From Ignavibacteriales bacterium (GTDB taxonomy: Bacteria; Bacteroidota; Ignavibacteria; UBA10030; SZUA-254), in NCBI GenBank assembly GCA_016214905.1, contig JACRMQ010000007.1:396408-460407 (forward strand): 64,000 nucleotides of DNA, read 5' to 3'. Under the pieces are notes generated by a model. That model had not been told where the DNA came from. It did no database searches and saw only the letters and a list, made by a program, of their open reading frames with translations. Positions 8,859 through 58,548 of the stretch are shown here, one piece after another. Each line of letters starts with the position of its first letter. Positions within the stretch are counted from its first letter, which is position 1. Position numbers and translations under genes: made by a program.

Positions 8859-8860
8859 AA

Positions 8861-27919: not shown

Positions 27920-27920
27920 T

Positions 27921-29729: not shown

Positions 29730-29807
29730 AAATTAATATTGTAGTTTTTAACTGTTAATAGCGTTTTCCTGAATGATAAACTAAGACCGAATGGAGAATA
29801 ATACAAA

Positions 29808-31865: not shown

Positions 31866-31910
31866 CTTTTACATCATAGTAGTCATATTTTCATTATTGG
31901 TAACAATCAT

Positions 31911-33365: not shown

Positions 33366-33375
33366 TATTCGACAT

Positions 33376-35736
33376 ATGAAAAAAGTCCTCAAGCAATTTT
33401 TGATAATATTAATAGGTGTTTTTATTTTTTCCTCCGGAATTGTATTTTCCGAACCTGATAACAAAAAACTCTCAATTATTCCCACACCCTCACAGGTTAA
33501 TTTTCACAAAGGATATTTTTTATTAAACCCTCAAACAAAAATCATTTATTCTGGAAATAACTCGGAATCAAAATTTACTGTTGAATATATTGCAAAAATT
33601 ATTCGAGGTTCTACCGAATTTAAATTACCGGTTAAAGACGTCGTTAAAATGCCATCAAAGAATTATATTTTTTTCAATTACATTCACGATGAAAATCTTG
33701 GCAAGGAAGGTTATAAACTGGATGTTGATAAAGATAAAATAAGTGTTGGTGCAAATTCCAGCGCCGGTTTTTTCTATGCGGTTCAAACGATATTACAATT
33801 ACTACCTTCGGAAATTTATGGTCGGAAAAAAGTTAAACATGTTCAATGGAAAATTCCGTGTATCTCTATTGTGGACAAACCCCGCTTTCAATGGCGAGGG
33901 ATGCATTTGGATGTCAGCAGACACTTTTTCCCCGCTGAATTTATCAAAACATATATTGATATGCTTGCGCTGCACAAGATGAATGTTTTTCATTGGCATC
34001 TTACCGACGATCAGGGATGGAGAGTTGAAATAAAGAAATATCCTAAACTTATATCTATCGGTGCATGGCGTGTAGATCGCGAAGATCGGTTATGGAACGA
34101 CCGTGAACCACAGCATGAAGGGGAAAAAGCAACTTACGGTGGTTTTTATACTCAGGATGAGATCAAGGAGATAGTAAAATATGCTGCTGAACGGCAAATC
34201 ACGATTGTTCCTGAAATAGAGTTGCCGGCACACTCCGGTGCAGTGCTTGCGGCATATCCGGAATATTCTTGCACGGGAGGACCGTTCACCGTTCCTCCCG
34301 GTAGTGTCTGGCCCATCACTACTCTTTATTGTGCGGGCAACGATAGTACATTTGAATTTATTGAATCAATTTTAGATGAAGTAATAAATTTATTCCCTGG
34401 AACATTTATCCATATCGGTGGTGATGAAGCTGATAAAACTGAATGGAGCAAATGTCAGAAATGTCAGGCACGGATCAAAGCTGAACGATTGAAAGGTGAA
34501 AACGAGCTTCAGAGTTATTTTATAAAGCGTATTGAAAAATTTATTGTTTCAAAAAACCGACGGATAATCGGTTGGGATGAAATTCTGGAAGGTGGCATCG
34601 CACCGGAAGCAACAGTCATGTCGTGGCGCGGTATGGATGGAGGAATCGCCGCCGCAAGAATGAACCATGATGTTGTTATGACTCCCGGCTCGCATTGCTA
34701 TTTCGATTACTATCAAGGTAAACCCGATTTTGAGCCGTTGGCAATCGGCGGTTATACTCCGTTAAAGAAGGTTTATGAATTTGAACCGATACCGGATAGT
34801 TTAACTTTTGAACAATCTAAACATATATTAGGCGCACAGGCAAATGTTTGGACTGAATTTATTGCGACACCGGAACATTTTCAGTATATGACTTTACCTC
34901 GAATGGCGGCAATGGCTGAAGTGTTGTGGTCGCCAAAACAAATGCGGGACTGGAATGAATTTATTCCAAGGATTGAAGTGCAAATTGAGCGTTATAATAA
35001 ATTAAATTATAACCATGCAAAAAGCGCTTATCTTATTTCAATATCTGCATCGCTGGATTCTGTAAAAAAAGAATTCGGTTTTGAATTATCGAACGAAATG
35101 CAATCGAAAGAAATGCGCTATACTCTCGACGGAAAAGAACCGACTATTCATTCCACTAAATATGTGAAGCCATTCAATGTAAATAAATCAACAGTTGTAA
35201 AAGCAGTTGCGTTTCATAAGGGAAAGGCGATTGGCGTTGTTTCGGAACAAAAAGTTTATTTACACAAAGCACTTTTTAAACCGGTAACATTAAAATATCC
35301 TTACTATAAATATAACGGCGGTGGTGAATTAGGATTGACGAACGGAATTCGCGGCACAAAATCTTATAACGACGGCAATTGGCAGGGATTCGAACAAAAC
35401 GATTTAGAAGCGATAATTGATCTCGGTTATGTAAAACAAATTAATAGTATTTCAACCGGTTTTCTTCAAAATACGAATTCCTGGATATTTTTCCCTTCGC
35501 TTGTCGAATACAAAATTTCTGAAGACGGCGTTTCATATAGTGCGATAACACACTTCGATCAACCTGTTGCAACGGGTCATCGGGAAGTCGAGATAAAAGA
35601 ATTTTCTTTTGAATTGAAAGATGCAAAAGCACGTTTCATTAAAGTGATTGCTAAAAATATCGGTCAGTGCCCGGATTGGCACATTGGCAAAGGTGGCAAG
35701 GTGTGGTTATTCATTGATGAGATTGTCGTAGAATAA
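33376..35736 (+). CDS. GH20 beta-N-acetylhexosaminidase with C-terminal F5/8 type C (discoidin)-like domain
   Basis: 786 aa. GH20 motifs FHWHLTDDQGWRVE and HIGGDEA. C-terminal beta-sandwich region. Confidence 0.8.
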   Translation: MKKVLKQFLIILIGVFIFSSGIVFSEPDNKKLSIIPTPSQVNFHKGYFLLNPQTKIIYSGNNSESKFTVEYIAKIIRGSTEFKLPVKDVVKMPSKNYIFFNYIHDENLGKEGYKLDVDKDKISVGANSSAGFFYAVQTILQLLPSEIYGRKKVKHVQWKIPCISIVDKPRFQWRGMHLDVSRHFFPAEFIKTYIDMLALHKMNVFHWHLTDDQGWRVEIKKYPKLISIGAWRVDREDRLWNDREPQHEGEKATYGGFYTQDEIKEIVKYAAERQITIVPEIELPAHSGAVLAAYPEYSCTGGPFTVPPGSVWPITTLYCAGNDSTFEFIESILDEVINLFPGTFIHIGGDEADKTEWSKCQKCQARIKAERLKGENELQSYFIKRIEKFIVSKNRRIIGWDEILEGGIAPEATVMSWRGMDGGIAAARMNHDVVMTPGSHCYFDYYQGKPDFEPLAIGGYTPLKKVYEFEPIPDSLTFEQSKHILGAQANVWTEFIATPEHFQYMTLPRMAAMAEVLWSPKQMRDWNEFIPRIEVQIERYNKLNYNHAKSAYLISISASLDSVKKEFGFELSNEMQSKEMRYTLDGKEPTIHSTKYVKPFNVNKSTVVKAVAFHKGKAIGVVSEQKVYLHKALFKPVTLKYPYYKYNGGGELGLTNGIRGTKSYNDGNWQGFEQNDLEAIIDLGYVKQINSISTGFLQNTNSWIFFPSLVEYKISEDGVSYSAITHFDQPVATGHREVEIKEFSFELKDAKARFIKVIAKNIGQCPDWHIGKGGKVWLFIDEIVVE

Positions 35737-35802
35737 CTCCTCTGTTTGTATGTGTCTCATCGAAATTAAATTCAAACATAAAATTAATCATCTAAAAATA
35801 AC

Positions 35803-38334
35803 ATGACACACTCTAAAATATTTCGGAAAATTATTTTTATTTTCTTCTTCCTTATAAATTTTATTTTTGCACAGACTTCCGATACGTTAATACTCCGTCA
35901 AGGGATGGCGCTTCAACTATTAAGAGGATATGGAGAAACAATCATTGCTCCAAATCCTGTCGAAGCGAATTTGGCTTTAGGAAAATGGGAATCACCATCA
36001 AAAGGGGAAAGCGTAACTTTTGTTAATGGCGAAGAGCATCAATGGATAATGTTAAACGCCGATTCATCCGGCTGGTTTGAAGATTCGGTCTTAACTGGCT
36101 GCTATCTTTATTTTTCGGTCGAGATGAAAAAGAAAACCATTATGATTCTCGAAGCGATGGGAAATGAAATGGTGTACATCAACGGTGTACCCCGTTCCGG
36201 TAATCCGTATGGATTGAAAGACACATACGAATCATGGGAAACAAATTTCCAGTACTCACGCCTTCCGTTGCAGCTTGAGAAAGGAAAGAATGAATTTCTT
36301 TTCCGCTGTCAGCGAGGCCGCTTCAAAGCAAAACTTTATAACCCATCAAAAAATATAATGTTCAATACTCGCGATATAACAATACCCGATTTTATAGTCG
36401 GAGAGAAAATTGACACATGGGGTTCGGTGGTAATCGTGAATGCTTCAGATAAAACACTTAATAATCTTAAGATTAAAACAACCATTGAAAAAAAAGAAGG
36501 AAAGTCGATTCAGGTTCCAATTATTCAGCCGATGAGTGTTCGGAAAGTAGGATTTCCATTGATCTCGGAAGCGATTAATCAGAAAGGAGTTACCGATGTT
36601 TGTGTTACTTTGTTCGAAACACATTCTGGTAAAAACATTATTATTGATACTGTAAATATTCCGTTAAGGGTGCTGAATTTTTCGGATAATCATAAAGAAA
36701 CATTCATCAGTAAAATCGATGGCAGTGTACAATATTACGGGATTAATCCCGCGGTCGGATCGAACAAAGAAAAATTTACAGCACTTTTTCTTTCGCTTCA
36801 CGGAGCGGGGGTTGATGCGGTGAATCAATCAGGTTCCTATTATCCAAAAACATGGGGACATATCGTCGCACCTACAAATCGCAGACCATACGGATATAAT
36901 TGGGAGGAATGGGGAAGATTAGATGCAATGGAAACAATGGAAATTGTAAAACAACGTTATCGAATTGATGAAAATCGGATTTACCTCACCGGTCATTCGA
37001 TGGGCGGTCATGGAGTTTGGCATATCGGCTCACTCTTTCCGGATAAATTTGCAGCAATTGGACCAAGCGCCGGATGGATTAGTTTTTGGACATATCGTTT
37101 CCGGGGACAAAATGTTTTAGACACAACTGATATCAGGAAAATGATTCGTCGGGCAACAACACCTAGCGAGACATTTATGCATGTCGATAATTATAAACAG
37201 CTCGGTGCTTACATCTTACATGGCTCTGATGATGATAATGTTTATCCCGAACAAGCAAGGATGATGGTTGATGAACTCAACAAACATAACTATAAAGATT
37301 TTATTTATCACGAGCAAAAAGGTGTAGGTCATTGGTGGGATTTATCCGATGAACCAGGTGCGGATTGTGTAGATTGGGCACCGATGTTCGATTTTTTTGC
37401 ACGTCATGCGCGTCCGCAGAAAGAACGTATCAGAGAAATAAATTTTAAAACATCTAATCCGGGAGTGTCGTCAAAAAATAATTGGATCACGATAGATGCA
37501 CAGATTGAGCAACTGAAAATCAGTTCGGCAAATATTCGGTTCGATCCGGGAATGAATCGATTTGTCGGTACAACAGACAATATCGCACGACTCGCTTTTG
37601 ATCTCGATATGGTCAAAACGACAGACACTCTTATAATAGAGTTAGACAGTCAAAAAGTTGTTACTGCCGGAGTTAAATCTGATGACGGAAAAATGTGGAT
37701 AAGTAAAAAAGGTGGACAATGGATTATAGATGGAAAGCCGTCTTTGTTAGAAAAAGGGGCGCACCGTTACGGGGCTTTTAAGGAAGCATTCCGGAACCAG
37801 ATGATTTTTGTATATGGTACGGATGGCACACAAGAAGAAAATGAATGGGCTTTCAATAAAGCCCGCTATGATGCGGAGAAATTCTGGTACCAGGGTAATG
37901 GTTCGATTGATATTTATGCCGACAAAGATTTCGATCCGTCAAAATTTTCCGACAGAAATATAGTTCTCTACGGAAATAGAAATACAAACAAAGCTTGGGG
38001 CAAACTTTTATCCGATAGTCCCGTGCAAGTTGGAAAGGGTTTTGTAAAAATCGGTGAAAAGAAAATTTCAGAAAACGACCTGTGCTGTATTTTCATCAGA
38101 CCAAGGGCCGGAAGTAATATCGCGAGCGTTGCAGCTATTTCAGGAACAGGCATTATCGGCATGAAGTTGAGTAACAGGTTGCCATATATGAATCCGGGAA
38201 TAGGTCTTCCGGATTGCACAATTATGAATCAAGATATTCTTAGCCATGGTGAAGAGGGTGTAGTAATGGCAGGATTTTTCGGACTTGACTGGAGTTTAGA
38301 AAAAGGCGATTTTGTATGGAATAAAAAACGATGA
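35803..38334 (+). CDS. Large secreted alpha/beta-hydrolase-fold serine hydrolase (esterase / S9-like), substrate unknown
   Basis: 843 aa. The GxSxG nucleophile elbow LTGHSMGGHGVW sits in the middle of the protein, flanked by N- and C-terminal beta-rich regions. N-terminal signal peptide. Confidence 0.5.
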   Translation: MTHSKIFRKIIFIFFFLINFIFAQTSDTLILRQGMALQLLRGYGETIIAPNPVEANLALGKWESPSKGESVTFVNGEEHQWIMLNADSSGWFEDSVLTGCYLYFSVEMKKKTIMILEAMGNEMVYINGVPRSGNPYGLKDTYESWETNFQYSRLPLQLEKGKNEFLFRCQRGRFKAKLYNPSKNIMFNTRDITIPDFIVGEKIDTWGSVVIVNASDKTLNNLKIKTTIEKKEGKSIQVPIIQPMSVRKVGFPLISEAINQKGVTDVCVTLFETHSGKNIIIDTVNIPLRVLNFSDNHKETFISKIDGSVQYYGINPAVGSNKEKFTALFLSLHGAGVDAVNQSGSYYPKTWGHIVAPTNRRPYGYNWEEWGRLDAMETMEIVKQRYRIDENRIYLTGHSMGGHGVWHIGSLFPDKFAAIGPSAGWISFWTYRFRGQNVLDTTDIRKMIRRATTPSETFMHVDNYKQLGAYILHGSDDDNVYPEQARMMVDELNKHNYKDFIYHEQKGVGHWWDLSDEPGADCVDWAPMFDFFARHARPQKERIREINFKTSNPGVSSKNNWITIDAQIEQLKISSANIRFDPGMNRFVGTTDNIARLAFDLDMVKTTDTLIIELDSQKVVTAGVKSDDGKMWISKKGGQWIIDGKPSLLEKGAHRYGAFKEAFRNQMIFVYGTDGTQEENEWAFNKARYDAEKFWYQGNGSIDIYADKDFDPSKFSDRNIVLYGNRNTNKAWGKLLSDSPVQVGKGFVKIGEKKISENDLCCIFIRPRAGSNIASVAAISGTGIIGMKLSNRLPYMNPGIGLPDCTIMNQDILSHGEEGVVMAGFFGLDWSLEKGDFVWNKKR

Positions 38335-38340
38335 TAATCA

Positions 38341-40566
38341 GTGAATCAACTTAAATTATTAATTCATTCAAGAGAAAAAAATATGAAAAATGCCCGATTA
38401 ATATTAATTGTATTGTGTGTCGTTTCGTTTTCAACAGCACAGGAGAAAAAATCGCTTACATTCGATCAGATTTTTAAAAATAGTGAACCTAAATTGATTC
38501 AATTGTTACCAACTATCTCAAGTTGGGCTGACGACGATCATTATCTTGAAACGAAGAAAAAAGATGGTATAGAAAAAGTTTATTCGGTTGATGCCCTGAC
38601 AGGAAAGGAGACTTTGTACAGAGATATCAATCAATACAAGACAATGGTTGATTCTGAAATCGTTGTGGATCAACCCGCAACTAACAATAAAGATTATGAT
38701 AAATTGATATATGCTAAAGAAAACGATCTTTATTACTTGAATGTGAAAAATAAATTGTTTAAGAGACTAACAAACGATTCCGTCGAAGAAAAAAATCCAA
38801 CAATCTCTCCCGATGGAAACTTTGTGGCTTTCACGCGCGATCACAATCTGTTTACAATTGATCTTAAAACCGGAACTGAAACGCAATATACATTCGATGG
38901 TAACGATGTTGTCTATAACGGTTGGGCTGCATGGATATATTATGAAGAAATTTTCGGTCGCCCGTCTAAGTACAAAGCATTTTGGTGGTCTCCCGATAGC
39001 AGACATATTGTATTTTACCGTTTCGATGAAAAGGATGTGCCCGTTTTTCCGCTATACAATGCGGAGGGACAGCACGGTTCGCTTGAAAATACTCGTTACC
39101 CAAAGGCGGGAGATAAAAATCCGGAAGTAAAATTCGGGATTATTACAGTTGAAGATAAAAAAATTGTTTGGGGTGATTTCAATGAAAAAGATGATCAATA
39201 TTTCGGCGAACCTTTCTGGACTCCTAATGGAGATCGCATGATTACGCAATGGATGAACCGGCAGCAGGATACTTTAATCTTGTATTCAATCGATCTTGTG
39301 ACCGGCAAGAGAAAAACCATTTATACCGAACATCAACCGACATGGGTTGATTGGGTTGAAAAGATTACCTTCCTGAAAAACGGTAAAGAGTTTTTTATTC
39401 AAAGTGATAAAAGCGGCTGGATGCATATATATCATTTTTCCATCGATGGCAAATTAATAAATCAAGTAACCGACGGTAAATGGGCGGTGGCAAATATTTT
39501 ATATGTCGACGAAGAGAAAAAAATAATTTATTTCACAGCACGTAAGGAAGTAACAACAAACACAGATTTTTATAAAATTAATTTTAACGGGAAAAAATTA
39601 ACACGATTAACATCGGGTGACTATTCGCATTCCGTAAATATCTCTCCAAAAGGAAAATATTTCATATCAACATATTCAAATATTTCCACGCCATCTTGCA
39701 TGGCAATTTTTGACAACAAAGGAAATGAAGTTAGAAAAATTGCAAACAGCCAGACCAAAGAATTCAACAACTACCTTATATCAAAATCCGAGTTATTCCA
39801 TGTTCCATCATCGGATAGTTACAATTTACCCGTAAAATGGACACTTCCGATAAATTTTGATGAAACGAAAAAATATCCGGTGTTGATCAGTGTTTACGGT
39901 GGTCCCGGTTCTTATGATGTATCGAATAGATGGGATGGTATACGTTCACAGTGGCTTGCGATGGAGGGTATAATTCAGATGTCAATCGATCATAGGGGTT
40001 CCCTTCATTTCGGCAAAGAGGGTAGTGCAAAAATGCACCGTCAGTTAGGGACGTGGGAGATGCACGATTATATCGAAGTTGCCAAATGGCTGTGCACTCA
40101 GCCGTTTATTGATACTTCTAAAATTTGCATCACGGGAGGAAGTTATGGCGGTTATGTTGCGGCATTGGCGCTGACATATGGCGCGGATTATTTTACACAC
40201 GGAATTGCATCTTATTCTGTTATCGATTATAAACTTTATGATTCTCATTATACCGAACGGTTTATGGATTCACCCTCGGAAAATCCGGACGGATATAAAA
40301 ATACATCTGTGCTCACATGGACAGATAGATACAAAGGATTACTGAGGATTGTTCACGGAACGATGGATGATAACGTTCATATGCAAAATATTTTGCAATT
40401 AGTCAGCAAGCTCGAAGATTCTAAAAAGCATTTCGAGTTGATGATATATCCTGGTGGAAGACACGGATGGGGTGGACCCAAAGCAACACATTTACGAAAT
40501 GAAAACTATCGTTTCTATTATAAGTATCTTTTAGAAAAAAATTTTCCCGATAATTTGTTCAATTAA
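38341..40566 (+). CDS. S9-family dipeptidyl-peptidase IV-like serine peptidase
   Basis: 741 aa. DPP-IV N-terminal propeller repeats. Catalytic GGSYGG motif (ITGGSYGGYVAALAL) plus C-terminal Asp/His. The probable start is MKNARL at 38383 with a signal peptide. Confidence 0.75.
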   Translation: MNQLKLLIHSREKNMKNARLILIVLCVVSFSTAQEKKSLTFDQIFKNSEPKLIQLLPTISSWADDDHYLETKKKDGIEKVYSVDALTGKETLYRDINQYKTMVDSEIVVDQPATNNKDYDKLIYAKENDLYYLNVKNKLFKRLTNDSVEEKNPTISPDGNFVAFTRDHNLFTIDLKTGTETQYTFDGNDVVYNGWAAWIYYEEIFGRPSKYKAFWWSPDSRHIVFYRFDEKDVPVFPLYNAEGQHGSLENTRYPKAGDKNPEVKFGIITVEDKKIVWGDFNEKDDQYFGEPFWTPNGDRMITQWMNRQQDTLILYSIDLVTGKRKTIYTEHQPTWVDWVEKITFLKNGKEFFIQSDKSGWMHIYHFSIDGKLINQVTDGKWAVANILYVDEEKKIIYFTARKEVTTNTDFYKINFNGKKLTRLTSGDYSHSVNISPKGKYFISTYSNISTPSCMAIFDNKGNEVRKIANSQTKEFNNYLISKSELFHVPSSDSYNLPVKWTLPINFDETKKYPVLISVYGGPGSYDVSNRWDGIRSQWLAMEGIIQMSIDHRGSLHFGKEGSAKMHRQLGTWEMHDYIEVAKWLCTQPFIDTSKICITGGSYGGYVAALALTYGADYFTHGIASYSVIDYKLYDSHYTERFMDSPSENPDGYKNTSVLTWTDRYKGLLRIVHGTMDDNVHMQNILQLVSKLEDSKKHFELMIYPGGRHGWGGPKATHLRNENYRFYYKYLLEKNFPDNLFN

Positions 40567-40569
40567 AAG

Positions 40570-43329
40570 GTGGCAGAAATGCAGAAAATAAAATATTATC
40601 TCAGTCTGATTATCATCGGCTTCGGTTTAATGAGTCCGGCAGATCTCATTGCAGTCTCAAAAGCAGATAGTGTAAAATCATATCAGTTAGAAAACGATAA
40701 AATTAAATTGTCGGTCACATTTCGTAACAATAAAATTACAGGTGATCAACTTGAAGTAAAAAGCAGTTGGGCAAAATCTTACGGTGGGACGACTCCAATT
40801 ATTATCAGAACCGATGGAGATTTTGGGCTTGATGTTATGTATACCGACTGGTCTGCCCCGGGCAAGATCAACAATGCCGATAATCCTGTTTTGTTATCGA
40901 AAAATAATTTTGAATTGGTTAATTCCGCGTCCGATGAAAAACCTGATGGGATTAGAGAACTTGTTTTCGATTTTAAGTCTAACGAAACAACAATTGACTT
41001 ACGGATTACATATCAATTATCAAATGATGATTTCTATATAAAAAGAAATCTTGCGGTAATGGATACTGCATTCGGGCATCATTTCTTAAGATGGTTCTGG
41101 CCAAACACCGGTGATCTCAATGGGGTCACAACAATAATTAAAGATGGCGGATTTGGTCAGCCGGTTGCATTCTTGACTAAAAGCGGCGGCGGTTTCTTCG
41201 GTGTGGAATACCCTGCGGCTGAAAATTCAATCATCAAATCCGGTAACGGTTACAAAATAAAATGTGGACAAGAATTTGGTGAGATAATAGGAAATGATTG
41301 GTTGAAAAGCGATTGGGTTGTCCAGGGGATTACACCGAATTCATACGTGAAAAATTGGTTCTCTCAATATTTGGACAATATCCGTGTCGCGCCTCTTCGA
41401 CCATATTCTCTATACAATACCTGGTACGATCTCCGTTCACCCGAATATCCCCGCTGGTCTCCGGAGAAAGTGATGAGCGAAAAAACCTCTTTACAAATGG
41501 TCGATGTTCTCAGAAAAAGTATGATTGAGAAATATAATATAAAGCTCGATGCGTTTGTGTTGGATGATGGCTGGGATGTTTATGAAAGTGATTGGGCGCT
41601 GCGGAAAGAACAGTGGCCCAATGGTTTGAAGCCTCTTGCCAATGAACTTAAAAAGACAAATACGTCGCTCGGTGTTTGGTTCGGTCCTACGGGTGGTTAT
41701 TCTTTTAGGATGAAACGCGTCAACTGGATGAAAGAGCATGGCTACGAGGTTGTTGGCAAAACTCGAAATAACTCAATGCTCTGCCTTGCGGGAAAAAACT
41801 ACAGTGACCTCTTTAGAAAGCGAGTTACGGACTTTGTAGCAAACGACGGAGTCGGATATTATAAATGGGATGGAATTCAATTTTCGTGCAGTGAACCCGG
41901 GCACGGACATCCGGTTGATATTTATTCCCGCCGCGCAGTGATGGAAAGTGTTGTTGAAAAATGTAATTCGGTGCGTGAGAAAAATCCTGATGTTTTCCTA
42001 AACATCACTTCGGGTACGTGGCTAAGTCCGTGGTGGGTAAAATACGCCAATACAATCTGGATGCAGGGAATGGATTACGGGTTTTCCGATGTCCCTTCAA
42101 TAAGCCAGCGCGATGGCGCAATAACATACCGTGATTTTGTTTTATATGACGATTTCAAACAGCAGAATTTCTGGTTCCCGATTGCAAACCTGATGACACA
42201 TGGAATTATAAAGGGGAAACATGAATCTGTCGGGATTGAAACAGAACCTCTCGATAAATTTACCGATGATGTTTTGCTTTACTTTGCCCGCGGCGTTGCG
42301 ATGTATGAGCTTTACATCTCACCAGATATTCTCACCGAAGGAGAGTGGACTTCGATTTCAAAATCTATGGCATGGGCAAGAGACCGTTTTCCGATTTTGA
42401 TGAACTCAGAAATGGTGGGCGGAAATCCTCTGAAGGGTGAAGCATACGCTCATGTGCATTTTAAAGATTCTCATGCGATAATTGCTGCCCGCAATCCGGT
42501 AATTGAATCATCGGTATTAAAAATTAAATTAGACCCCACTTTCGGTCTCGATCCGAAATCATCCTCTTTGGTTTTAGAAAGAATCTATCCAACAAGATGG
42601 ATTTCTCCGAAACTTTACAGGTCGGGAGAAACAATTTCATTGCCGCTGGATGGATTCGAAACCGCAGTGTACGAAATGTATCCGCTTGAAGAAGCCACCA
42701 CTCCTCTCGTATCCGGAGTTGTATTCGATGCGACAAACGAAAAAGGAAATGAATACAAAATCAATTATCATAGTTCTTCTTCCGATGCAAAATTATTAAA
42801 TCCATCTATCGTAAAAAATGCAACCGCAAAATCATTCTCAATCAAAAAAGAGAATTCCGCGAAAATGGTGACTGAAAGTTCTGTTCAATCGGATCTAAAC
42901 GAAAAATCTAAAATCAACATTCGATTAAACATTTCTAATTTCACAAAAGATGGAATGATTGCAATCTTATTAACTCCCGACAAATCTTTAGCTCCGAAAG
43001 CGAAGCCGGATTTATCGGTGTTAATCGACGGTAAGTTGGATTCCGTAAAGACTGAACCGCAGGAAGGAAAGTCACAGTGGTTTATGATAGATGTTTCTGA
43101 TGGCAGGCATGATGTAACAGTTCGGGTAACACCCGGTAAGGATGAAAAGGAATGGAAGGGTACTGCTTCCGTCTGGGCAATCGGAAAACAACAGCAGAAA
43201 ATAAAAGAAATTACTTTTGAAATGAAGAATGAAATAAAATCTAAACCGATGCCGCCGCTGCCTTGGTCTCCAGGTGAAGTGAGAAGAAATTTGAAACTTG
43301 GCGAAATAAAAATAAGTTGCATCAAGTAA
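40570..43329 (+). CDS. Large clan GH-D-like glycosidase (GH36/alpha-galactosidase or alpha-N-acetylgalactosaminidase-like)
   Basis: 919 aa. FVLDDGWD motif and a downstream YYKWDG nucleophile-type motif, as in GH36/GH27. Family assignment is tentative. Confidence 0.45.
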   Translation: MAEMQKIKYYLSLIIIGFGLMSPADLIAVSKADSVKSYQLENDKIKLSVTFRNNKITGDQLEVKSSWAKSYGGTTPIIIRTDGDFGLDVMYTDWSAPGKINNADNPVLLSKNNFELVNSASDEKPDGIRELVFDFKSNETTIDLRITYQLSNDDFYIKRNLAVMDTAFGHHFLRWFWPNTGDLNGVTTIIKDGGFGQPVAFLTKSGGGFFGVEYPAAENSIIKSGNGYKIKCGQEFGEIIGNDWLKSDWVVQGITPNSYVKNWFSQYLDNIRVAPLRPYSLYNTWYDLRSPEYPRWSPEKVMSEKTSLQMVDVLRKSMIEKYNIKLDAFVLDDGWDVYESDWALRKEQWPNGLKPLANELKKTNTSLGVWFGPTGGYSFRMKRVNWMKEHGYEVVGKTRNNSMLCLAGKNYSDLFRKRVTDFVANDGVGYYKWDGIQFSCSEPGHGHPVDIYSRRAVMESVVEKCNSVREKNPDVFLNITSGTWLSPWWVKYANTIWMQGMDYGFSDVPSISQRDGAITYRDFVLYDDFKQQNFWFPIANLMTHGIIKGKHESVGIETEPLDKFTDDVLLYFARGVAMYELYISPDILTEGEWTSISKSMAWARDRFPILMNSEMVGGNPLKGEAYAHVHFKDSHAIIAARNPVIESSVLKIKLDPTFGLDPKSSSLVLERIYPTRWISPKLYRSGETISLPLDGFETAVYEMYPLEEATTPLVSGVVFDATNEKGNEYKINYHSSSSDAKLLNPSIVKNATAKSFSIKKENSAKMVTESSVQSDLNEKSKINIRLNISNFTKDGMIAILLTPDKSLAPKAKPDLSVLIDGKLDSVKTEPQEGKSQWFMIDVSDGRHDVTVRVTPGKDEKEWKGTASVWAIGKQQQKIKEITFEMKNEIKSKPMPPLPWSPGEVRRNLKLGEIKISCIK

Positions 43330-43461
43330 ATAAATGTTTTAGCGTCACGGATAAATGGAGTAATTGATTGTTAGAAAGGTAGATCAATGAATTTCATAAT
43401 TCCAATATTCCATCAGTCCAATTTTTGCTTTTTCTATTTTAAATTATAGGAGTAATATTTT

Positions 43462-45462
43462 ATGAGAATACAATGGTTATTCCTCTGTGTAATATTGTTT
43501 GCGATTCTTCTGCCTGCACAAACCATTTATCTTGATGAACTGAATCTCTCTGCCATGGAATGTGGTTGGGGAACGCCGGAAGCTAACAAATCGGTGGGAG
43601 GGAACTCGCTCAAAGTAGGCGGACAAATTTTTAACCGCGGCGTGGGGACTCATGCTGTAAGCACTCTCCTGATGAACCTAGACGGTAAAGGGAAGCGTTT
43701 CACTTCATCTTTTGGATTAGATGATGAGGTGGCTGACGGCAAAGGAACGATAAAGTTTTTTATTATCGGTGACAGGAAAATTCTTTGGCAAAGTCCGGTT
43801 ATGAAAAAAGGAGATAAAGCAGAATTTGCAGACGTCGATCTTACCAATATCAAATTGTTGGGTTTGCTTGTTACAGATGGCGGTGATGATATAGATTATG
43901 ACCACGCCGATTGGTGTGATGCGAAGATTGAATTTACATCGAAACGCAAACCGGATGAGCTTGTAGTTAAAACTGTTATTGAACCGTATATACTTACTCC
44001 GAAACCTTCCGATTCACCCAAAATTAATGGAGCAAAAATTTTTGGTGTTAGACCGGGCAATCCTTTCCTCTACACAATTGCAGCTACAGGAAAACGACCG
44101 ATGAAATTTTTCGCCAACAATCTTCCCGTTGGATTATTACTTGATAATACCACGGGAATCATTACAGGAAAAGTCGATAAAGAATGTGAATACAATGTAA
44201 CCCTGATTGTACAGAACGATCTTGGTGATGCTAGGCGGGAGCTTCGCATAAAGGTGGGAAAACAAATCGCACTTACTCCACCAATGGGCTGGAATAGCTG
44301 GAATTGCTGGGCTTGTGCGGTTGATGACGCGAAGGTTCGTACTTCTGCCGATGCGATGGTTTCTTCCGGGTTGATTAATCATGGCTGGACGTACATCAAT
44401 ATTGATGATTGCTGGGAGATAAAACCGGATGCAAAAGAACCTGAACTTCAAGGCGAATTGCGCAATAAAGATGGCATGATCAATACAAACAAAAAATTTC
44501 CTGACATGAAATTGTTAGGCGATTATGTTCACAGTAAAGGATTAAAGCTAGGGATTTATTCCGGGCCTGGACCGTTGACCTGTGCCGGTTTTACGGCGAG
44601 TTATCAATTTGAAATTCAAGATGCTAAACAGTACGCCGAATGGGGTATCGATTATTTGAAATACGATTGGTGCTCTTACGGAAAAATTGCAAAAGATCAG
44701 AGTTTACCGGAGCTAAAAAAACCGTATCAAGTTATGCGTGATGCTTTAGACAAAGTGCCGCGAGATATTGTTTACAGTTTATGTCAGTATGGAATGGGAA
44801 ACGTATGGGAATGGGGCGAGGAAGTTGGCGGTAATTGCTGGCGAACTACCGGTGATATTACGGATACTTGGTCGAGTATGTCGGGCATCGGTTTCAATCA
44901 GGCGGGACATGAAAAATTTGCCGGACCCGGACACTGGAACGATCCCGATATGCTTGTGGTCGGACTTGTCGGCTGGGGACCCAATCTTCATCCAACAAAA
45001 TTGACTCCGGATGAACAATATACGCATATCAGTTTGTGGTCTTTACTCTGTTCGCCGCTTCTTATCGGTGCCGATATGAGCCGGCTTGATGATTTTACAT
45101 TGAATCTTCTAACGAATGATGAGGTAATAGAAATCAATCAGGATCCTCTCGGTATTCAGGCAAGAAGAATATTTAATGAAGACGGAAAACAAATCTGGAT
45201 AAAAGAAATGGAAGACGACTCGAAAGCTGTCGGTTTATTTTTCGCAGACGCAGGCAAGCGGGAACCTGTAGATTATTTTCAGTGGGATATTCAACCCAAG
45301 AAAACAAAAATAGTTTTGAAAGGATCGGATATCGGAATCAACGGTAAGTTCAGCGTGAGGGATGTTTGGCGGCAGAAGGATATTGGAGTTTTTGAAAACC
45401 AATTTGAAGCTGATATTCCATATCACGGCGTTATCTTGATTAAATGCAAAAGTAAAAATTAA
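43462..45462 (+). CDS. GH27 alpha-galactosidase / alpha-N-acetylgalactosaminidase with N-terminal NPCBM (NEW2) carbohydrate-binding domain
   Basis: 666 aa. N-terminal NPCBM-like block (LDELNLS...GWGT...). GH27 motifs PPMGWNSWNCW, INIDDCWE and IDYLKYDWC. Confidence 0.8.
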   Translation: MRIQWLFLCVILFAILLPAQTIYLDELNLSAMECGWGTPEANKSVGGNSLKVGGQIFNRGVGTHAVSTLLMNLDGKGKRFTSSFGLDDEVADGKGTIKFFIIGDRKILWQSPVMKKGDKAEFADVDLTNIKLLGLLVTDGGDDIDYDHADWCDAKIEFTSKRKPDELVVKTVIEPYILTPKPSDSPKINGAKIFGVRPGNPFLYTIAATGKRPMKFFANNLPVGLLLDNTTGIITGKVDKECEYNVTLIVQNDLGDARRELRIKVGKQIALTPPMGWNSWNCWACAVDDAKVRTSADAMVSSGLINHGWTYINIDDCWEIKPDAKEPELQGELRNKDGMINTNKKFPDMKLLGDYVHSKGLKLGIYSGPGPLTCAGFTASYQFEIQDAKQYAEWGIDYLKYDWCSYGKIAKDQSLPELKKPYQVMRDALDKVPRDIVYSLCQYGMGNVWEWGEEVGGNCWRTTGDITDTWSSMSGIGFNQAGHEKFAGPGHWNDPDMLVVGLVGWGPNLHPTKLTPDEQYTHISLWSLLCSPLLIGADMSRLDDFTLNLLTNDEVIEINQDPLGIQARRIFNEDGKQIWIKEMEDDSKAVGLFFADAGKREPVDYFQWDIQPKKTKIVLKGSDIGINGKFSVRDVWRQKDIGVFENQFEADIPYHGVILIKCKSKN

Positions 45463-45474
45463 AAAGGAAAAAAT

Positions 45475-46443
45475 ATGAAAAAATTATTGTTAATTATTCC
45501 AATCATTTTAATCTTTTCAATACCATCGGTTTCACAGGAAGCCAAATGGTACAAAGGAAACACTCATACGCACACTACGAATTCCGATGGCGATGAATTG
45601 CCGCGACGTGTAGTGAGATGGTATCTTGATCATGAATATAATTTTCTTGTGATAACCGATCATGACCGGTTTACAGATATAAAGTATCTTGATGCAGATG
45701 AGAACGATGATTTTATTCTTATTTCGGGAGAAGAAGTATCCGATCGTGCCGAGGGTAAGCCGGTTCATGTAAATGGAATTGGAATAAAAAATATCGTGGA
45801 TGCCCGGCATGGCAATACGAAACTTGAAACCATTCAGAATAATGTTGATGCAGTTATAGCAGCAGGAGGGATTCCTCAAATCAACCATCCGAACTGGAGG
45901 TATTCATTTAATGATTCTGTTCTTACAAAAATCAAAAATGCCAAACTTATTGAAGTCTACAATGTTAGCGAAGAAAACAATAATTATCCTGCAGGTGGAT
46001 TCTCTGGTACTGAAGAGATCTGGGATAAAGTATTATCACAGGGTGTGGTTTTGTACGGTGTGGTATCCGATGACGCTCACGATTACGTTGGAGAATTCAT
46101 GCCGGAAAAATCGCCACCAGGGACAGGATGGATTATGGTGCGAGCGAAAGAGTTGACCACTGACGCTATACTCAGTGCGCTGAATAATGGAGATTTTTAC
46201 GGAACCAATGGTGTATATTTGAAGGAATTGAATATTACCGATAAAGAATATGCTATTGAAGTTGATCCATCTCGGGATGCGAAATATACAATTCAATTTA
46301 TTGGTAATGAGGGAAAAATCCTCAAAGAAGAATATGGCTATAGAGCTTCATACCGTTTCAAGGGAGATGAAAAATATGTTCGTGCGAAAGTGACTTGCTC
46401 TTCCGGAGATTTTGCAATTACGCAACCGGTCTTTGTTAAGTAA
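45475..46443 (+). CDS. Secreted PHP-domain (CehA/McbA-type) metal-dependent phosphoesterase
   Basis: 322 aa. Signal peptide followed by GNTHTHTTNSDGD...VITDHD, the PHP metal-binding motifs. Confidence 0.6.
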   Translation: MKKLLLIIPIILIFSIPSVSQEAKWYKGNTHTHTTNSDGDELPRRVVRWYLDHEYNFLVITDHDRFTDIKYLDADENDDFILISGEEVSDRAEGKPVHVNGIGIKNIVDARHGNTKLETIQNNVDAVIAAGGIPQINHPNWRYSFNDSVLTKIKNAKLIEVYNVSEENNNYPAGGFSGTEEIWDKVLSQGVVLYGVVSDDAHDYVGEFMPEKSPPGTGWIMVRAKELTTDAILSALNNGDFYGTNGVYLKELNITDKEYAIEVDPSRDAKYTIQFIGNEGKILKEEYGYRASYRFKGDEKYVRAKVTCSSGDFAITQPVFVK

Positions 46444-46475
46444 CCGATACCGATCAATGATTTATAGAAAATGAT

Positions 46476-47939
46476 ATGATACTACGATTAATAATATTTA
46501 TACTTTTTCATGGTCTGGCGCCTTTATTTCTGTTCGCGCAAAATATAGGTGCACCGGTTCCGATCAATCCTATTCCATCCGAACGTCAACTCGCATGGCA
46601 AAACTTAGAGTATTACGGATTTCTTCATTTTACAGTTAATACTTTTACAGATAAAGAGTGGGGTTACGGCGATGAGCCCGAATCAGTTTTTAATCCTATC
46701 GATTTTGATGCAAATGAAATTGTCCGCATCGCGAAAGATGCCGGAATGGCCGGACTGATAATCACAGCTAAACATCACGATGGCTTTTGCTTGTGGCAAT
46801 CGAAATATACAGAGCATTCGGTTAAGAACAGTCCGTGGAAAAACGGTAAAGGAGATATTGTTAAAGAGTTATCGGATGCATGCCGCGAATATAATTTAAA
46901 ATTCGGTGTTTATCTTTCACCGTGGGACCGTAATCATAAAGATTACGGAAAACCCGAATACCTCGATTACTACAGAAATCAACTACATGAGTTGTTGACA
47001 AACTATGGTGAAATTTCTGAAGTGTGGTTCGACGGAGCATATGGCGGCGATGGTTACTACGGCGGAGCCCGCGAAAAAAGAATTATCGACCGTAAAACAT
47101 ATTATGACTGGGAAAATACATGGAAGATTGTCCGCGAGCTTCAACCCAACGCGGTAATTTTTAGCGATGTCGGACCTGATATCAGATGGGTTGGTAATGA
47201 GAATGGTTATTCAGGTGAAACATGCTGGTCGATGTATACTCCGAATGGGGAAAATTATGACACGCCTGCACCCGGTTATACAAAATATAAAGAGGGCATT
47301 GAAGGACACCGCGATGGAAAAAATTGGTTACCTGCTGAATGTGATGTTTCAATTAGACCTGGCTGGTTTTACCATACGAATGAAGATTCACTTGTGAAGT
47401 CACCGGAAGATTTATTCAGATTGTATCTGAAATCGGTTGGTCGCAATGGTTCGCTGCTTCTGAATATCCCGCCAAACCGCCGAGGCAGAATTAGTGACAA
47501 CGATGTAAAGTCATTGATGGGATTCAAACATCTCCGTGAATCAGTTTTCGCCAACAATTTGACAAAACTTGGACAGGCGACCGCATCAAACGTTCGTGGC
47601 AACAAGAAACAATTTGCGGCAAGTAATATTGTAGATGGAGACAAAGGTTCATACTGGGCAACGGATGATTCAGTAAAAAGCGCATCACTTATAGTTGATC
47701 TAGGAAAACTAACAGAGATAAAGTATATATTGTTGCAGGAATATATTGCACTCGGTCAACGTGTTGAATCATTTACGATTGAAGGATGTGATGGAAAGAT
47801 GTGGAAGAAGCTCGATTCGGGAACTACTATAGGACATAAACGGATTATTAAATTTCCACCAACAACCGTCAATAGAATTAAGTTAGATATTCAGAAAGCT
47901 AAAGCATGTCCCGTTATATCAAATCTTGAGATATTTTGA
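46476..47939 (+). CDS. GH29 alpha-L-fucosidase with C-terminal F5/8 type C domain
   Basis: 487 aa. Motifs TAKHHDGFCLWQS and VWFDGAYGG. C-terminal discoidin-like region (SNIVDGDKGSYWATDD). Confidence 0.8.
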   Translation: MILRLIIFILFHGLAPLFLFAQNIGAPVPINPIPSERQLAWQNLEYYGFLHFTVNTFTDKEWGYGDEPESVFNPIDFDANEIVRIAKDAGMAGLIITAKHHDGFCLWQSKYTEHSVKNSPWKNGKGDIVKELSDACREYNLKFGVYLSPWDRNHKDYGKPEYLDYYRNQLHELLTNYGEISEVWFDGAYGGDGYYGGAREKRIIDRKTYYDWENTWKIVRELQPNAVIFSDVGPDIRWVGNENGYSGETCWSMYTPNGENYDTPAPGYTKYKEGIEGHRDGKNWLPAECDVSIRPGWFYHTNEDSLVKSPEDLFRLYLKSVGRNGSLLLNIPPNRRGRISDNDVKSLMGFKHLRESVFANNLTKLGQATASNVRGNKKQFAASNIVDGDKGSYWATDDSVKSASLIVDLGKLTEIKYILLQEYIALGQRVESFTIEGCDGKMWKKLDSGTTIGHKRIIKFPPTTVNRIKLDIQKAKACPVISNLEIF

Positions 47940-48213: not shown

Positions 48214-48591
48214 ATGAAGATTATAGTCTCAAATGCATCACAAGATCCGATTTATGAGCAGATTTGTAAACAGATAAAGGCACAAATCATATCCGGAGCT
48301 CTTGAAGAAGGAAGTGCTCTTCCGTCTATAAGAAAATTGGCACAAGAGTTACAAATAAGTGTCATCACTACAAAGCGAGCTTATGAGGAACTTGAAAAAG
48401 AAGGATTCATCGACAGCGTTGGGGGTAAAGGATGTTTTGTCGCGATGCAGAATAAGGAACTGCTTCGCGAGAAAAAAATTAAAAATGTAGAAGAGTTATT
48501 AAGTGATGCAGTTAAAGAAGCGAAGAAGTTTGGGGTATCATTTAAAGAAGTAAAAGAAATGTTGGAACTATTATATCATAACGAGGAATAA
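48214..48591 (+). CDS. GntR-family transcriptional regulator, YtrA subfamily
   Basis: 125 aa. N-terminal winged HTH (LPSIRKLAQELQISVITTKRAYEELEKEGFI) and a short C-terminal domain typical of YtrA-like regulators. Followed by an ABC ATPase. Confidence 0.75.
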   Translation: MKIIVSNASQDPIYEQICKQIKAQIISGALEEGSALPSIRKLAQELQISVITTKRAYEELEKEGFIDSVGGKGCFVAMQNKELLREKKIKNVEELLSDAVKEAKKFGVSFKEVKEMLELLYHNEE

Positions 48592-48595
48592 CATT

Positions 48596-50174: not shown

Positions 50175-50179
50175 AAAAC

Positions 50180-50836: not shown

Positions 50837-50845
50837 AGGGAAACG

Positions 50846-51496: not shown

Positions 51497-51505
51497 GGCA
51501 ACGGT

Positions 51506-52176: not shown

Positions 52177-52443
52177 ATGAGTAATATCTTTTTAACTGTT
52201 GCAATAATCTGTGTTCTCTGGGGAGTTGTTTCATCTATAGTAATTGTTTCCTTCCTATCGAATCACGGTGTGAAAATCAATTACTTCTTATTGAGATTAC
52301 TTTTACCAAAATATGTCGGACAGTATCGGAAAATTACACTCGAAGAAACTGGTAAGCCAGGCGGATGGTACTACTCGTTTGTAATATCTATGATTTCAGG
52401 GCTAACATTGGCGATTTTTGGGATATTACTGAGACAAACATGA
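52177..52443 (+). CDS. Small two-TM membrane protein
   Basis: 88 aa with two hydrophobic helices. Its stop overlaps the ATG of the next gene. Confidence 0.35.
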   Translation: MSNIFLTVAIICVLWGVVSSIVIVSFLSNHGVKINYFLLRLLLPKYVGQYRKITLEETGKPGGWYYSFVISMISGLTLAIFGILLRQT

Positions 52444-55250: not shown

Positions 55251-56189
55251 TTGAAATTTGTTCGTAAATATGCATATTCAGAAAGATTTATGAAAGGCAT
55301 GGTATTCAATATTCAGCGATATTCTATAAACGATGGGCCAGGTATTCGTACAACCGTTTTCCTAAAAGGATGTCCGCTTCATTGTTTGTGGTGTCATAAT
55401 CCTGAATCAATTTCCACCGATCAAGAAATTGTTCTGCGGGAAGATAGATGTATCCGCTGCGGAAGCTGTATTGAATGCTGCAGCCAACATGCAATCCGGA
55501 ATGAAAGCAACCTTATCGTTACATCGTGTGAGAAATGTATAAGATGTGGAAACTGCGTTGAGGTATGCTATGCCGGCGGGCGGGAGATTGCGGGTAAAGA
55601 GATGTCTGTGGAAGATGTAGTGAAAGAAATTGAAAAAGATATCATCTTTTACAACAGGTCGACAGGTGGAGTTACATTTTCAGGTGGCGAGCCGTTTCTT
55701 CAACATTTGTTTCTAAAGTCTCTTCTCGAAAATTGTAAATCAAAAAACATTCATACGGCAGTAGATACAGCTGGATTTGTCGTGGAAAATATTTTAAACG
55801 GGTTTGAAAATTTGATCGATCTATTTCTATATGATATCAAAACCGTTGACGATTTCAAGCATCGCATGTTCACCGGCGGATCGAATAAAATAATTCTTGA
55901 TAATCTAAGGTTTTTGATAAATCAAGGGAATAATATAATTATTAGAGTACCCGTAATACCGGGATTTAACAATAATCTTCATGATATGAAGTTAGTAGGT
56001 GAGTTTGTTGATTCACTTAAAAATATTTCCGAAATTCATTTATTGCCATATCATAAATCAGGAACGGAAAAATATAAACGATTAGGGATAAAATTTGAAA
56101 TGAATGATGAACCACCTGATTCAACAGCAATGGAGCTTATTGCCGCTGAGATGAAAAAATATGTTCAAACAGTCAAGATAGGCGGATAA
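55251..56189 (+). CDS. Glycyl-radical-enzyme activating enzyme (radical SAM, with two auxiliary ferredoxin-type [4Fe-4S] motifs)
   Basis: Radical SAM motif GCPLHCLWCHNPE plus CIRCGSCIECC and CEKCIRCGNCVEVC. The probable start is MKGMVF at 55290. Confidence 0.8.
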   Translation: MKFVRKYAYSERFMKGMVFNIQRYSINDGPGIRTTVFLKGCPLHCLWCHNPESISTDQEIVLREDRCIRCGSCIECCSQHAIRNESNLIVTSCEKCIRCGNCVEVCYAGGREIAGKEMSVEDVVKEIEKDIIFYNRSTGGVTFSGGEPFLQHLFLKSLLENCKSKNIHTAVDTAGFVVENILNGFENLIDLFLYDIKTVDDFKHRMFTGGSNKIILDNLRFLINQGNNIIIRVPVIPGFNNNLHDMKLVGEFVDSLKNISEIHLLPYHKSGTEKYKRLGIKFEMNDEPPDSTAMELIAAEMKKYVQTVKIGG

Positions 56190-56190
56190 T

Positions 56191-58548
56191 ATGAACGACC
56201 GTGTAAAAAAATTACGGGAACAAAGCATCAACTCTGTGCCCACAATTTCATCAGAGCGGGCAAAACTTGTAACCAATTTCTATAAAAATTCAGAATCACT
56301 CCCCATACCTATTCAGAGAGCGCTGGTTTTCAAAACAATAATGGAAAACAAAACTATTTGCATTAATCATGGCGAGCTGATTGTTGGTGAACGCGGACCA
56401 GCCCCCAAAGCGACTTACACTTATCTGGAAATCTGTTGTCACATGTTGAGTGACTTAGAAACACTTCACAACCGCGAAAAGGTTTGGTTCAAAGTTGATG
56501 AAGAAACCCGGCGATTATACCGCGATGAATTTATTCCTTTCTGGAAAGAGAAAACCATTCGTGAAAAAATATTTAACGCTGTATCGGATGAATGGAAAGA
56601 TGCTTACTCTGCTGGTATCTTCACGGAGTTCATGGAGCAAAGGGCGCCGGGACATACGGTTCTCGATGATAAGATTTATCGAAAGGGGATGCTCGACCTT
56701 AAAAACGATATTGAACAAAGCCTGAAGTCGATTGATTTCAAAAATGACCCGGAAGCAAAATCTAAAGAAAATGAGTTGCAAGCAATGAACATCTGCGCGG
56801 ATGCAATCATCTCGTTTGCAAACCGTCATGCAGATAAAGTACATGAACTCGCATTTGTAGAAATTAATCCGGTTAGAAAATCGGAGTTGGAAGCAATTGA
56901 AAAAATTTGTCGTCGGGTCCCAGCTAACGCTCCGCAAAATTTCTGGGAAGCGCTTCAATATTACTGGTTCATTCACCTCGGAGTGGTTACCGAATTAAAT
57001 CCCTGGGATGCGTTCAATCCGGGACATCTCGATCGTCATCTCTATCCGTTTTATAAAAAAGGATTGGAGAATGAAACTCTTACAAAAGAAAAAGCTAAGG
57101 AATTACTCCAATGCTTCTGGGTAAAATTCAACAACCAGCCGGCACCGCCGAAGGTCGGTGTAACTGCAGCAGAAAGTTCAACTTACACCGACTTTGCAAA
57201 TATTAATTCAGGCGGGATAATGTCCGATGGCAGTGATGGTGTAAATGAATTAACATATCTTATTCTAGATGTTATCGACGAGATGAAATTAGTTCAGCCT
57301 AGTTCGAACATTCAGCTTAGTGAGAAAAATTCCGATGAGTTCCTGAAACATGCTTTGAAGATAATCAAAAATGGCCGCGGCCAGCCATCCATTTTTAATG
57401 CTGATACCGTCGTCGATGAAATGCTTCGGCAGGGAAAATCTATCGAAGATGCACGAAATGGAGGAACAAGTGGTTGCGTGGAAACAGGTGCTTTCGGAAA
57501 AGAAAGTTATATACTTACCGGATACTTCAACATTCCGAAAGTTTTCGAGATAACTTTAAACAACGGTGTTGATCCACGAACCGGAAGGAAAATCGGTCTT
57601 GAGACCGGAAATCCTGAACTGTTTAAATCTTTTGATGAATTAATGTTTGCTTTCGAAAAGCAGATGAAGCATTTCATCGATATTAAAATGAAAGGGAATC
57701 ATTCGATCGAAAGATTATACGCCGAAGAATTACCGGTACCATTCTTATCAATCCTGATTGATGATTGTATTTTAAAAGGAAAAGATTATAATAAAGGCGG
57801 AACGCGATACAACACGAATTATATTCAAGGTGTCGGCATAGGTACGATAACCGATTGTCTTGCATCGATCAAATATAATGTATTTGAGAAAAAAATCATT
57901 TCAATGACAGATATGTTGAAAATGCTTGCCGTAAACTTTGAAAGATTCGAACGAGAACAAATGCTTCTATTAAACAAAACTCCAAAGTACGGTAACGATG
58001 ATGATTATGCTGATGATTTGATGAAGCAGGTGTTCGAGATGTATTTCAAACTTGTTGACGGTAGACCAAATACTAAAGGTGGTCTGTACAGGATTAATTT
58101 ACTTCCGACGACATGCCACATCTATTTCGGTTCAGTCACAGGTGCAACACCAGATGGACGAAAAGCTTGGACTCCGCTCTCGGAAGGAATATCTCCCGTG
58201 CAAGGTGCGGATAGAAAAGGTCCGACAGCTGTGTTGAAGTCAGCGGGGAAGATGGATCATGTACGTACAGGTGGAACATTGTTGAACCAAAAGTTTACTC
58301 CTCAAATATTAGAAAGCGAAAAAGGACTTGATAGTCTTGCACATCTTGTACGCGGATATTTCATAATGGGCGGACATCATATTCAGTTTAATGTTGTCAC
58401 CGCACAAACCTTGCGCGAAGCACAGGCGCATCCCGAGCAACACCGTGATTTAATTGTGCGCGTTGCAGGCTATAGTGATTACTTCTGCGATTTGAGCAAG
58501 ACGCTGCAAGACGAGATTATTGCGAGGACGGAACATCAAGGATTCTAA
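56191..58548 (+). CDS. Glycyl radical enzyme (PFL family), eliminase/dehydratase-type Cys loop, substrate unknown
   Basis: 785 aa. C-terminal glycyl radical motif RVAGYSDYF. Single-Cys catalytic loop GTSGCVETG (Cys-x-Glu, as in glycerol dehydratase, CutC and HypD). No PFL-type Cys-Cys pair. Confidence 0.75.
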   Translation: MNDRVKKLREQSINSVPTISSERAKLVTNFYKNSESLPIPIQRALVFKTIMENKTICINHGELIVGERGPAPKATYTYLEICCHMLSDLETLHNREKVWFKVDEETRRLYRDEFIPFWKEKTIREKIFNAVSDEWKDAYSAGIFTEFMEQRAPGHTVLDDKIYRKGMLDLKNDIEQSLKSIDFKNDPEAKSKENELQAMNICADAIISFANRHADKVHELAFVEINPVRKSELEAIEKICRRVPANAPQNFWEALQYYWFIHLGVVTELNPWDAFNPGHLDRHLYPFYKKGLENETLTKEKAKELLQCFWVKFNNQPAPPKVGVTAAESSTYTDFANINSGGIMSDGSDGVNELTYLILDVIDEMKLVQPSSNIQLSEKNSDEFLKHALKIIKNGRGQPSIFNADTVVDEMLRQGKSIEDARNGGTSGCVETGAFGKESYILTGYFNIPKVFEITLNNGVDPRTGRKIGLETGNPELFKSFDELMFAFEKQMKHFIDIKMKGNHSIERLYAEELPVPFLSILIDDCILKGKDYNKGGTRYNTNYIQGVGIGTITDCLASIKYNVFEKKIISMTDMLKMLAVNFERFEREQMLLLNKTPKYGNDDDYADDLMKQVFEMYFKLVDGRPNTKGGLYRINLLPTTCHIYFGSVTGATPDGRKAWTPLSEGISPVQGADRKGPTAVLKSAGKMDHVRTGGTLLNQKFTPQILESEKGLDSLAHLVRGYFIMGGHHIQFNVVTAQTLREAQAHPEQHRDLIVRVAGYSDYFCDLSKTLQDEIIARTEHQGF

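Follow-up and report, generated by a model that had tools for sequence, protein, structure and literature searches.

A glycyl radical enzyme and its activase in an Ignavibacteriales genome as a probable trans-4-hydroxy-L-proline dehydratase operon

Introduction

Which substrate is used by a glycyl radical enzyme (GRE) whose gene lies beside a fucosidase-rich locus in an Ignavibacteriales bacterium? The gene occupies positions 56191..58548 (+) of a 64,000-nucleotide stretch (referred to here as the window; positions 396,408 to 460,407 of contig JACRMQ010000007.1, assembly GCA_016214905.1) and follows directly on a gene for a GRE-activating enzyme. An earlier reading of the letters and translations (the sequence-only reading) had located both open reading frames (ORFs), described a 785-aa GRE with the glycyl radical motif RVAGYSDYF and the single-cysteine loop GCVE, and left the substrate unassigned, naming 1,2-propanediol and trans-4-hydroxy-L-proline (hereafter Hyp) as the plausible candidates. 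The ORFs, the length and both motifs are as described, whereas the substrate can now be assigned: the GRE and its activase very probably constitute a hypD operon, with the enzyme predicted to be trans-4-hydroxy-L-proline dehydratase (HypD).

Identity of the glycyl radical enzyme

The GRE matches two Pfam domains, PF02901 (pyruvate formate-lyase (PFL)-like; 746 bits, profile positions 1-647 of 647) and PF01228 (Gly_radical; 129 bits, residues 664-766), and because the E-values are effectively zero, chance is of no concern for these assignments. The glycyl radical motif RVAGYSDYF spans residues 757-765 (58459..58485, +), with Gly760 corresponding to Gly765 of the Clostridioides difficile enzyme, and the GCVE loop spans residues 428-431 (57472..57483, +), with Cys429 and Glu431 corresponding to C. 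difficile Cys434, the thiyl radical site, and Glu436. The protein is deposited as MBI5021589.1 under the label 'glycyl radical protein' (an exact match, encoded on a 1.38-Mb contig of an Ignavibacteriales metagenome-assembled genome (MAG)), and the same 12 kb are also present in a Logan assembly of SRR12113394.

With respect to class, the placement of this protein among the Cys-x-Glu (CXE) eliminases, already proposed from the loop, is borne out. A PFL, or another GRE that forms or cleaves C–C bonds and was misjudged from its Cys loop, would share the PFL-like fold and nothing else. The PFL model TIGR01255 gives 125.7 bits against a cut-off of 994, PFL structures score only ~100 bits, and the loop carries one Cys (Cys429) followed by Val-Glu rather than the Cys-Cys of PFL, leaving this alternative a negligible probability.

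Within the eliminases, the curated NCBIfam models single out HypD. Specifically, the HypD equivalog NF043068 is passed at 1325.5 bits (cut-off 1100) over profile positions 1-783 of 784, whereas the next substrate-specific model, that of sulfopropanediol dehydratase, yields 553 bits against a cut-off of 1000. The CutC model TIGR04394 falls short as well (514.4 bits, cut-off 1050); these scores, and not protein length, speak against CutC, since the earlier argument that 785 aa is the wrong size for that enzyme is weakened by a CutC core model that is itself 789 positions long. Indoleacetate and hydroxyphenylacetate decarboxylases, HplG and sulfopropanediol dehydratase were also considered and rejected, each lying below its curated cut-off or far below the HypD score.

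A search of all PDB sequences leads to the same family. The top match is C. difficile HypD (6vxc/6vxe) at 1088.8 bits, with glycerol dehydratase (GD; 1r8w) at 552, propanediol dehydratase (PD; 5i2a) at 504 and HplG (7vua) at 411 bits. The alignment with C. difficile HypD is collinear over the full length (residues 3-782, one 1-aa gap, 58.6% identity), and the Gly and CXE loops are identical. This degree of identity lies within the functional range, as Hyp is consumed by commensal Clostridia with a HypD that shares only 55% identity with its C. difficile counterpart (PMC9044972). Given 59% identity to a solved structure together with the equivalog hidden Markov model, we regard the family as settled: the window protein is a member of HypD.

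Active-site conservation

The structural and mutational work on C. difficile HypD provides a residue-level standard for substrate assignment. In that enzyme the radical resides on Gly765 and Cys434; Glu436, Asp278, His160 and Asp339 provide acid–base chemistry and positioning; the binding site for the substrate carboxylate is formed by Ser334, Tyr450 and Thr645; Phe340, Phe152 and Trp277 pack against the ring; and Arg156 and Lys326 balance charge (PMC7077986). Asp278 and Asp339 are strictly conserved among HypD enzymes and not among other eliminases, and Ser334 stands where GD (Phe333), PD (Phe338), CutC and IslA have a Phe (PMC7077986).

Inspection of the active site against the HypD structure, which had been suggested from the sequence-only reading as a check, gave a complete match. 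All 15 residues of the crystallographic and mutagenesis set (in C. difficile numbering F152, R156, H160, W277, D278, K326, S334, D339, F340, C434, V435, E436, Y450, T645 and G765, each being the window residue number plus 5) are identical in the window protein. These include the HypD-specific catalytic residues Asp273, Asp334 and His155, as well as S329, Y445, T640, F335, F147 and W272, which correspond to the binders of the Hyp carboxylate and ring.

The same residues are held across the family. A one-genome-per-species scan gave at least 594 relatives (594 among the 600 matched stretches listed), and the best 80 of them were taken as loci L001-L080. These span many phyla, in MAGs from soil, fen and sediment, and their hypD homologues, 63-77% identical to the window protein, come from Ignavibacteriota, Bacteroidota, Acidobacteriota, KSB1 and Chloroflexota MAGs; the closest among the matches listed is an Ignavibacteriota MAG (L001, 77% identity). 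In an alignment of the window protein with 79 of these relatives, 13 of the 15 active-site positions are invariant and the other two are conserved in 79 of 80 sequences; the equivalents of Asp273, Asp334 and His155 are present in 80/80. Two of the loci, L046 and L020 (67-68% identity), carry the contig labels 'Nanoarchaeota archaeon' and 'Caulobacteraceae bacterium'. Neither host would be expected for an oxygen-sensitive GRE of bacterial-type sequence, and these labels possibly reflect binning contamination or horizontal transfer.

These residues also bear on the second candidate, a B12-independent 1,2-propanediol or glycerol dehydratase that would use propanediol derived from fucose released by the neighboring fucosidases. 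The window GRE does resemble GD (1R8W) and PD (5I2A) in its eliminase class, CXE loop, similar length and multi-cluster activase, and three GH29 fucosidase genes lie upstream of it, just as the hypD of L001 is found among fucosidases. Nonetheless, the GD and PD structures align with half the score of C. difficile HypD, and the pocket differs: glycerol dehydratase places Phe, Met and His where the window protein has Ser329, Asp334 and Asp273 (C. difficile S334, D339 and D278), the two Asp residues being those confined to HypD. The window is moreover without genes for a bacterial microcompartment shell, aldehyde dehydrogenase, fucose isomerase, fuculose aldolase or lactaldehyde reductase. Of the two candidates named earlier, HypD is therefore upheld by its equivalog model and the complete residue set, and propanediol dehydratase, extremely unlikely on scores, pocket and context genes alike, is not.

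Proposed catalytic mechanism

With respect to mechanism, the course of the reaction can be extrapolated from the family. The activase would use S-adenosylmethionine and a [4Fe-4S] cluster to take a hydrogen atom from Gly760, leaving the glycine as a stable radical. During every turnover this radical would pass from Gly760 to Cys429, which would in turn take a hydrogen atom from C5 of Hyp, and the 4-hydroxyl group would be lost as water with the aid of a network formed by Asp273, His155 and Glu431 (C. difficile Asp278, His160 and Glu436). We infer that the product is delta-1-pyrroline-5-carboxylate (P5C), which would then be reduced to proline or oxidized to glutamate by enzymes encoded beyond the window.

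The activating enzyme and operon structure

The gene upstream of hypD encodes a radical S-adenosylmethionine GRE activase (55290..56189, +; NCBI MBI5021588.1), identified by matches to PF04055, Fer4_12, TIGR02494 and NF043069. Its score on the general GRE-activase model TIGR02494, 365.5 bits, exceeds the cut-off of 174, and adjacency to hypD is what assigns the protein as the activase serving HypD. The ORF as mechanically listed begins at TTG 55251 and encodes 312 aa, and candidate ATG codons lie at 55290 (299 aa, the NCBI call) and 55299 (296 aa, the Logan call). One of these two is more likely to be the genuine start than the TTG, because the family models align only from residue 16.

Auxiliary [4Fe-4S] clusters are typical of the activases of eliminase-class GREs, and the earlier claim that this activase carries two extra ferredoxin-like clusters is substantiated. 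In the numbering of the TTG ORF, the radical-SAM motif CX3CX2C comprises Cys41/45/48 (55371..55394, +, from the translation), and two CX2CX2CX3C motifs follow at Cys67/70/73/77 and Cys96/99/102/106 (55449..55568, +), with Pfam matches to Fer4, Fer4_10 and Fer4_21 at residues 60-106. The CX3CX2C and both auxiliary-cluster motifs are shared with the C. difficile HypD-activating enzyme, whose gene likewise lies directly upstream of hypD on the same strand.

A single base separates the end of the activase stop codon (56189) from the ATG of the GRE (56191) on the same strand, and with this spacing the two genes are almost certainly co-transcribed. A scan for promoters and terminators over 47.8-58.8 kb returned sites no more numerous than in shuffled sequence.

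Gene order and neighbors among relatives

The activase-first order had been emphasized in the sequence-only reading of this locus. In the survey of relatives, at least 63 of the 80 loci have the activase gene on the same strand and directly upstream of hypD; three more were mis-scored through ORF overlap, and most of the others seem truncated by contig ends. The same order is found in C. difficile, where a promoter upstream of the activase gene (RS17455) is followed by hypD (RS17450) and proC (RS17445). On the strength of this survey and the C. difficile locus, activase-first order is the norm of the family and does not set the window apart.

Beyond the pair itself, the relatives show recurrent neighbors. 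An M24 metallopeptidase gene (prolidase or Xaa-Pro aminopeptidase-like) lies directly 3' of hypD in 13/80 loci, and less frequent neighbors encode OCD/mu-crystallin proteins (6 loci), members of the proline-racemase family (5), aldehyde dehydrogenases (4) and SSF symporters (3); the loci named jointly for these recurrent clusters include L016, L028, L009 and L057. Such neighbors are compatible with metabolism of proline and hydroxyproline. The window shares with its relatives the activase-first pair and the invariant active-site residues, but unlike many of them its hypD is without neighboring M24 peptidase, OCD-family, proline-racemase-family or aldehyde dehydrogenase genes.

Comparison with C. 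difficile reveals further differences of setting. The host is an environmental Ignavibacteriales bacterium and not a gut Firmicute, and the gene pair stands in a glycosidase/peptidase neighborhood with neither an adjacent proC nor a proline reductase (prd) context, so a Stickland role is unlikely.

Weighing the assignment

Three observations weigh against the assignment as a Hyp dehydratase operon. First, the activase misses the cut-off of the HypD-activase equivalog NF043069 (371.5 vs 425 bits), which is nonetheless its top specific model. Second, the 64-kb window contains no gene for P5C reductase (proC), P5C dehydrogenase (putA), proline reductase (prd) or Hyp epimerase; an adjacent proC, however, characterizes only a Clostridial subgroup, is no defining trait of the family and is usually lacking. 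Third, immediately upstream of the activase are two PF00144 beta-lactamase-fold serine hydrolase genes (52440-53591 and 53646-55130, +), a pair that occurs beside hypD in 0/80 related loci and is uninformative on substrate. As to the proteins themselves, their NCBIfam scores are far under all class C, AmpH and D-aminopeptidase cut-offs, the second bears a C-terminal extension of ~150 aa without a domain match, and they may be peptidases or esterases.

The activase score, the glycosidase setting without proC that departs from the Clostridial prototype, and the uncharacterized state of HypD enzymes from the environmental Fibrobacteres–Chlorobi–Bacteroidetes (FCB) group are the points in favor of an enzyme of the HypD clade with a close variant substrate, such as a different isomer of hydroxyproline, Hyp with an N-modification or a small glycoprotein-derived compound that contains Hyp. 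We consider this very unlikely. Every residue that touches the hydroxyl, amine, carboxylate or ring of Hyp matches C. difficile and is invariant in the relatives, leaving no visible room for an altered substrate, and HplG, a GRE acting on a Hyp isomer, scores only 411 bits. Activity of the window enzyme on Hyp itself, as predicted above, is thus the reading that we retain, and the gene pair is an ordinary copy of the known HypD and its activase, with a chemistry that is already well characterized.

Linkage to a fucosidase-rich locus

The setting of the hypD operon differs from the norm in one respect, namely its proximity to genes for glycan degradation. The sequence-only reading had described a fucosidase-rich locus and peptidases in the window, and both are present. 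A glycan/glycoprotein-degradation locus of ~27 kb lies on one strand (20724-47939, +; Pfam and NCBIfam), and also carries an SSF symporter, a GHMP sugar kinase and a nucleotidyltransferase. Its degradative part (24581..47939, +) encodes GH38, GH35, three GH29 fucosidases (29808-31865, 31911-33365 and 46476-47939, +), GH20, an S9 peptidase or esterase (35803-38334, +), dipeptidyl peptidase IV (DPP-IV; 38341-40566, +), two melibiase-type alpha-galactosidases, one of them with an NPCBM domain, and a metallohydrolase of the CehA/McbA family. An M28 peptidase gene lies at 16732-18219. No SusC/SusD-type gene is present among the annotated window ORFs of at least 150 aa.

Between the last GH29 gene and the hypD operon stands a cassette of low GC content (0.34 vs ~0.40; 48214-52159, +) in which genes for a short GntR-family regulator and an ABC ATPase accompany four ABC2_membrane_5 paralogues in tandem. 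The 80 hypD loci contain no homologues of this cassette beyond generic ABC ATPase matches. On the other side of the operon, clpB (MBI5021590.1) and dnaK lie downstream in convergent orientation.

Among the relatives, the clearest parallel to this arrangement is L001 (CAVSHI010000001.1, 1-22352), where hypD and its activase lie amid GH95, GH31, a GDSL-GH29 fusion, GH29-PA14 and GH2 genes. Its two GH29 genes share 68% and 66% identity with those at 46476-47939 and 29808-31865 of the window, respectively. The cassette looks like an insertion, because the orthologous GH29 gene of L001 stands directly before the activase, whereas in the window the GntR-ABC cassette and the two beta-lactamase-fold genes part hypD from GH29. 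Fainter parallels are offered by L009 (GH20), L007 (a GH29/GH20 fusion) and L004 (DPP-IV). In L001 itself, an ORF6N-domain protein is encoded just 3' of hypD, and the activase frame seems to be broken close to its 3' end into ORFs 9034-9888 and 9677-9952, maybe by an assembly frameshift.

The position of hypD in a fucosidase-rich glycosidase locus, in both the window and L001, hints at use of hydroxyproline-rich glycoproteins. From this gene linkage, Hyp would most plausibly be supplied by the glycosidase/peptidase locus, in peptides that the neighboring peptidases free from deglycosylated glycoproteins. A stronger version sees hypD in Ignavibacteriales not as a stand-alone amino-acid gene but as the last step encoded by a locus for use of hydroxyproline-rich, fucosylated glycoproteins. 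In such a pathway, glycosidases would strip the glycans from plant or algal extensins, arabinogalactan proteins, animal glycoproteins or collagen debris, the S9, DPP-IV and M28 peptidases would free Hyp, and HypD would convert it to P5C for central metabolism. We regard this version as possible but rather unlikely. Our search of the literature on HypD, whether in Ignavibacteria or within glycoprotein-utilization loci, returned nothing specific.

Other features of the window

Several further gene groups lie at a distance from the hypD operon. A corrinoid methyltransferase system occupies 12176-16626 (-) and 18256-20594 (+). Its MttB-family protein (490 aa, 15154-16626) is uninterrupted and scores 339 bits, under the 525 cut-off of the model for pyrrolysine-containing trimethylamine methyltransferase, so that it is probably a quaternary-amine methyltransferase of the type without pyrrolysine. 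The same system includes a Met_synt_B12 activation-domain protein (14441-15157), a corrinoid protein that binds B12 (13173-13811) and a protein with the homocysteine S-methyltransferase fold (12176-13057), and nearby are a further gene of the S-methyl_trans type (19707-20594) and one for an amino-acid permease (18256-19587). Candidate substrates of the system are glycine betaine, proline betaine and compounds like them.

Toward the start of the window, genes of the XdhC family and for a MobA-like nucleoside triphosphate transferase (1175-2326 and 4808-5410), both associated with maturation of the molybdenum cofactor, stand on either side of a gene for a DUF5916/CBM9 protein of 746 aa (2420-4660); the window showed no molybdoenzyme gene. 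A regulatory group at 7803-10188 (-) consists of an extracytoplasmic function-type sigma factor (9592-10188), a zf-HC2 anti-sigma protein (8861-9595) and a protein of 351 aa that matches no Pfam domain (7803-8858).

Implications

The assignment replaces the generic label of MBI5021589.1 with a specific predicted function, that of trans-4-hydroxy-L-proline dehydratase, and leaves the understanding of GRE chemistry unaltered. Hydroxyproline is an abundant product of the turnover of collagen and of plant cell-wall proteins, and Ignavibacteriales can now be added to the anaerobes predicted to consume it. The relatives found in the scan indicate that HypD is very widespread in MAGs from soil, fen and sediment, in agreement with published expectations. 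Mild novelty lies only in the linkage of hypD to fucosidase-rich glycan loci, which is conserved in Ignavibacteriota. If hypD does serve as the last step of glycoprotein use, its linkage to orthologous GH29 genes in two Ignavibacteriota genomes would reflect co-regulation.

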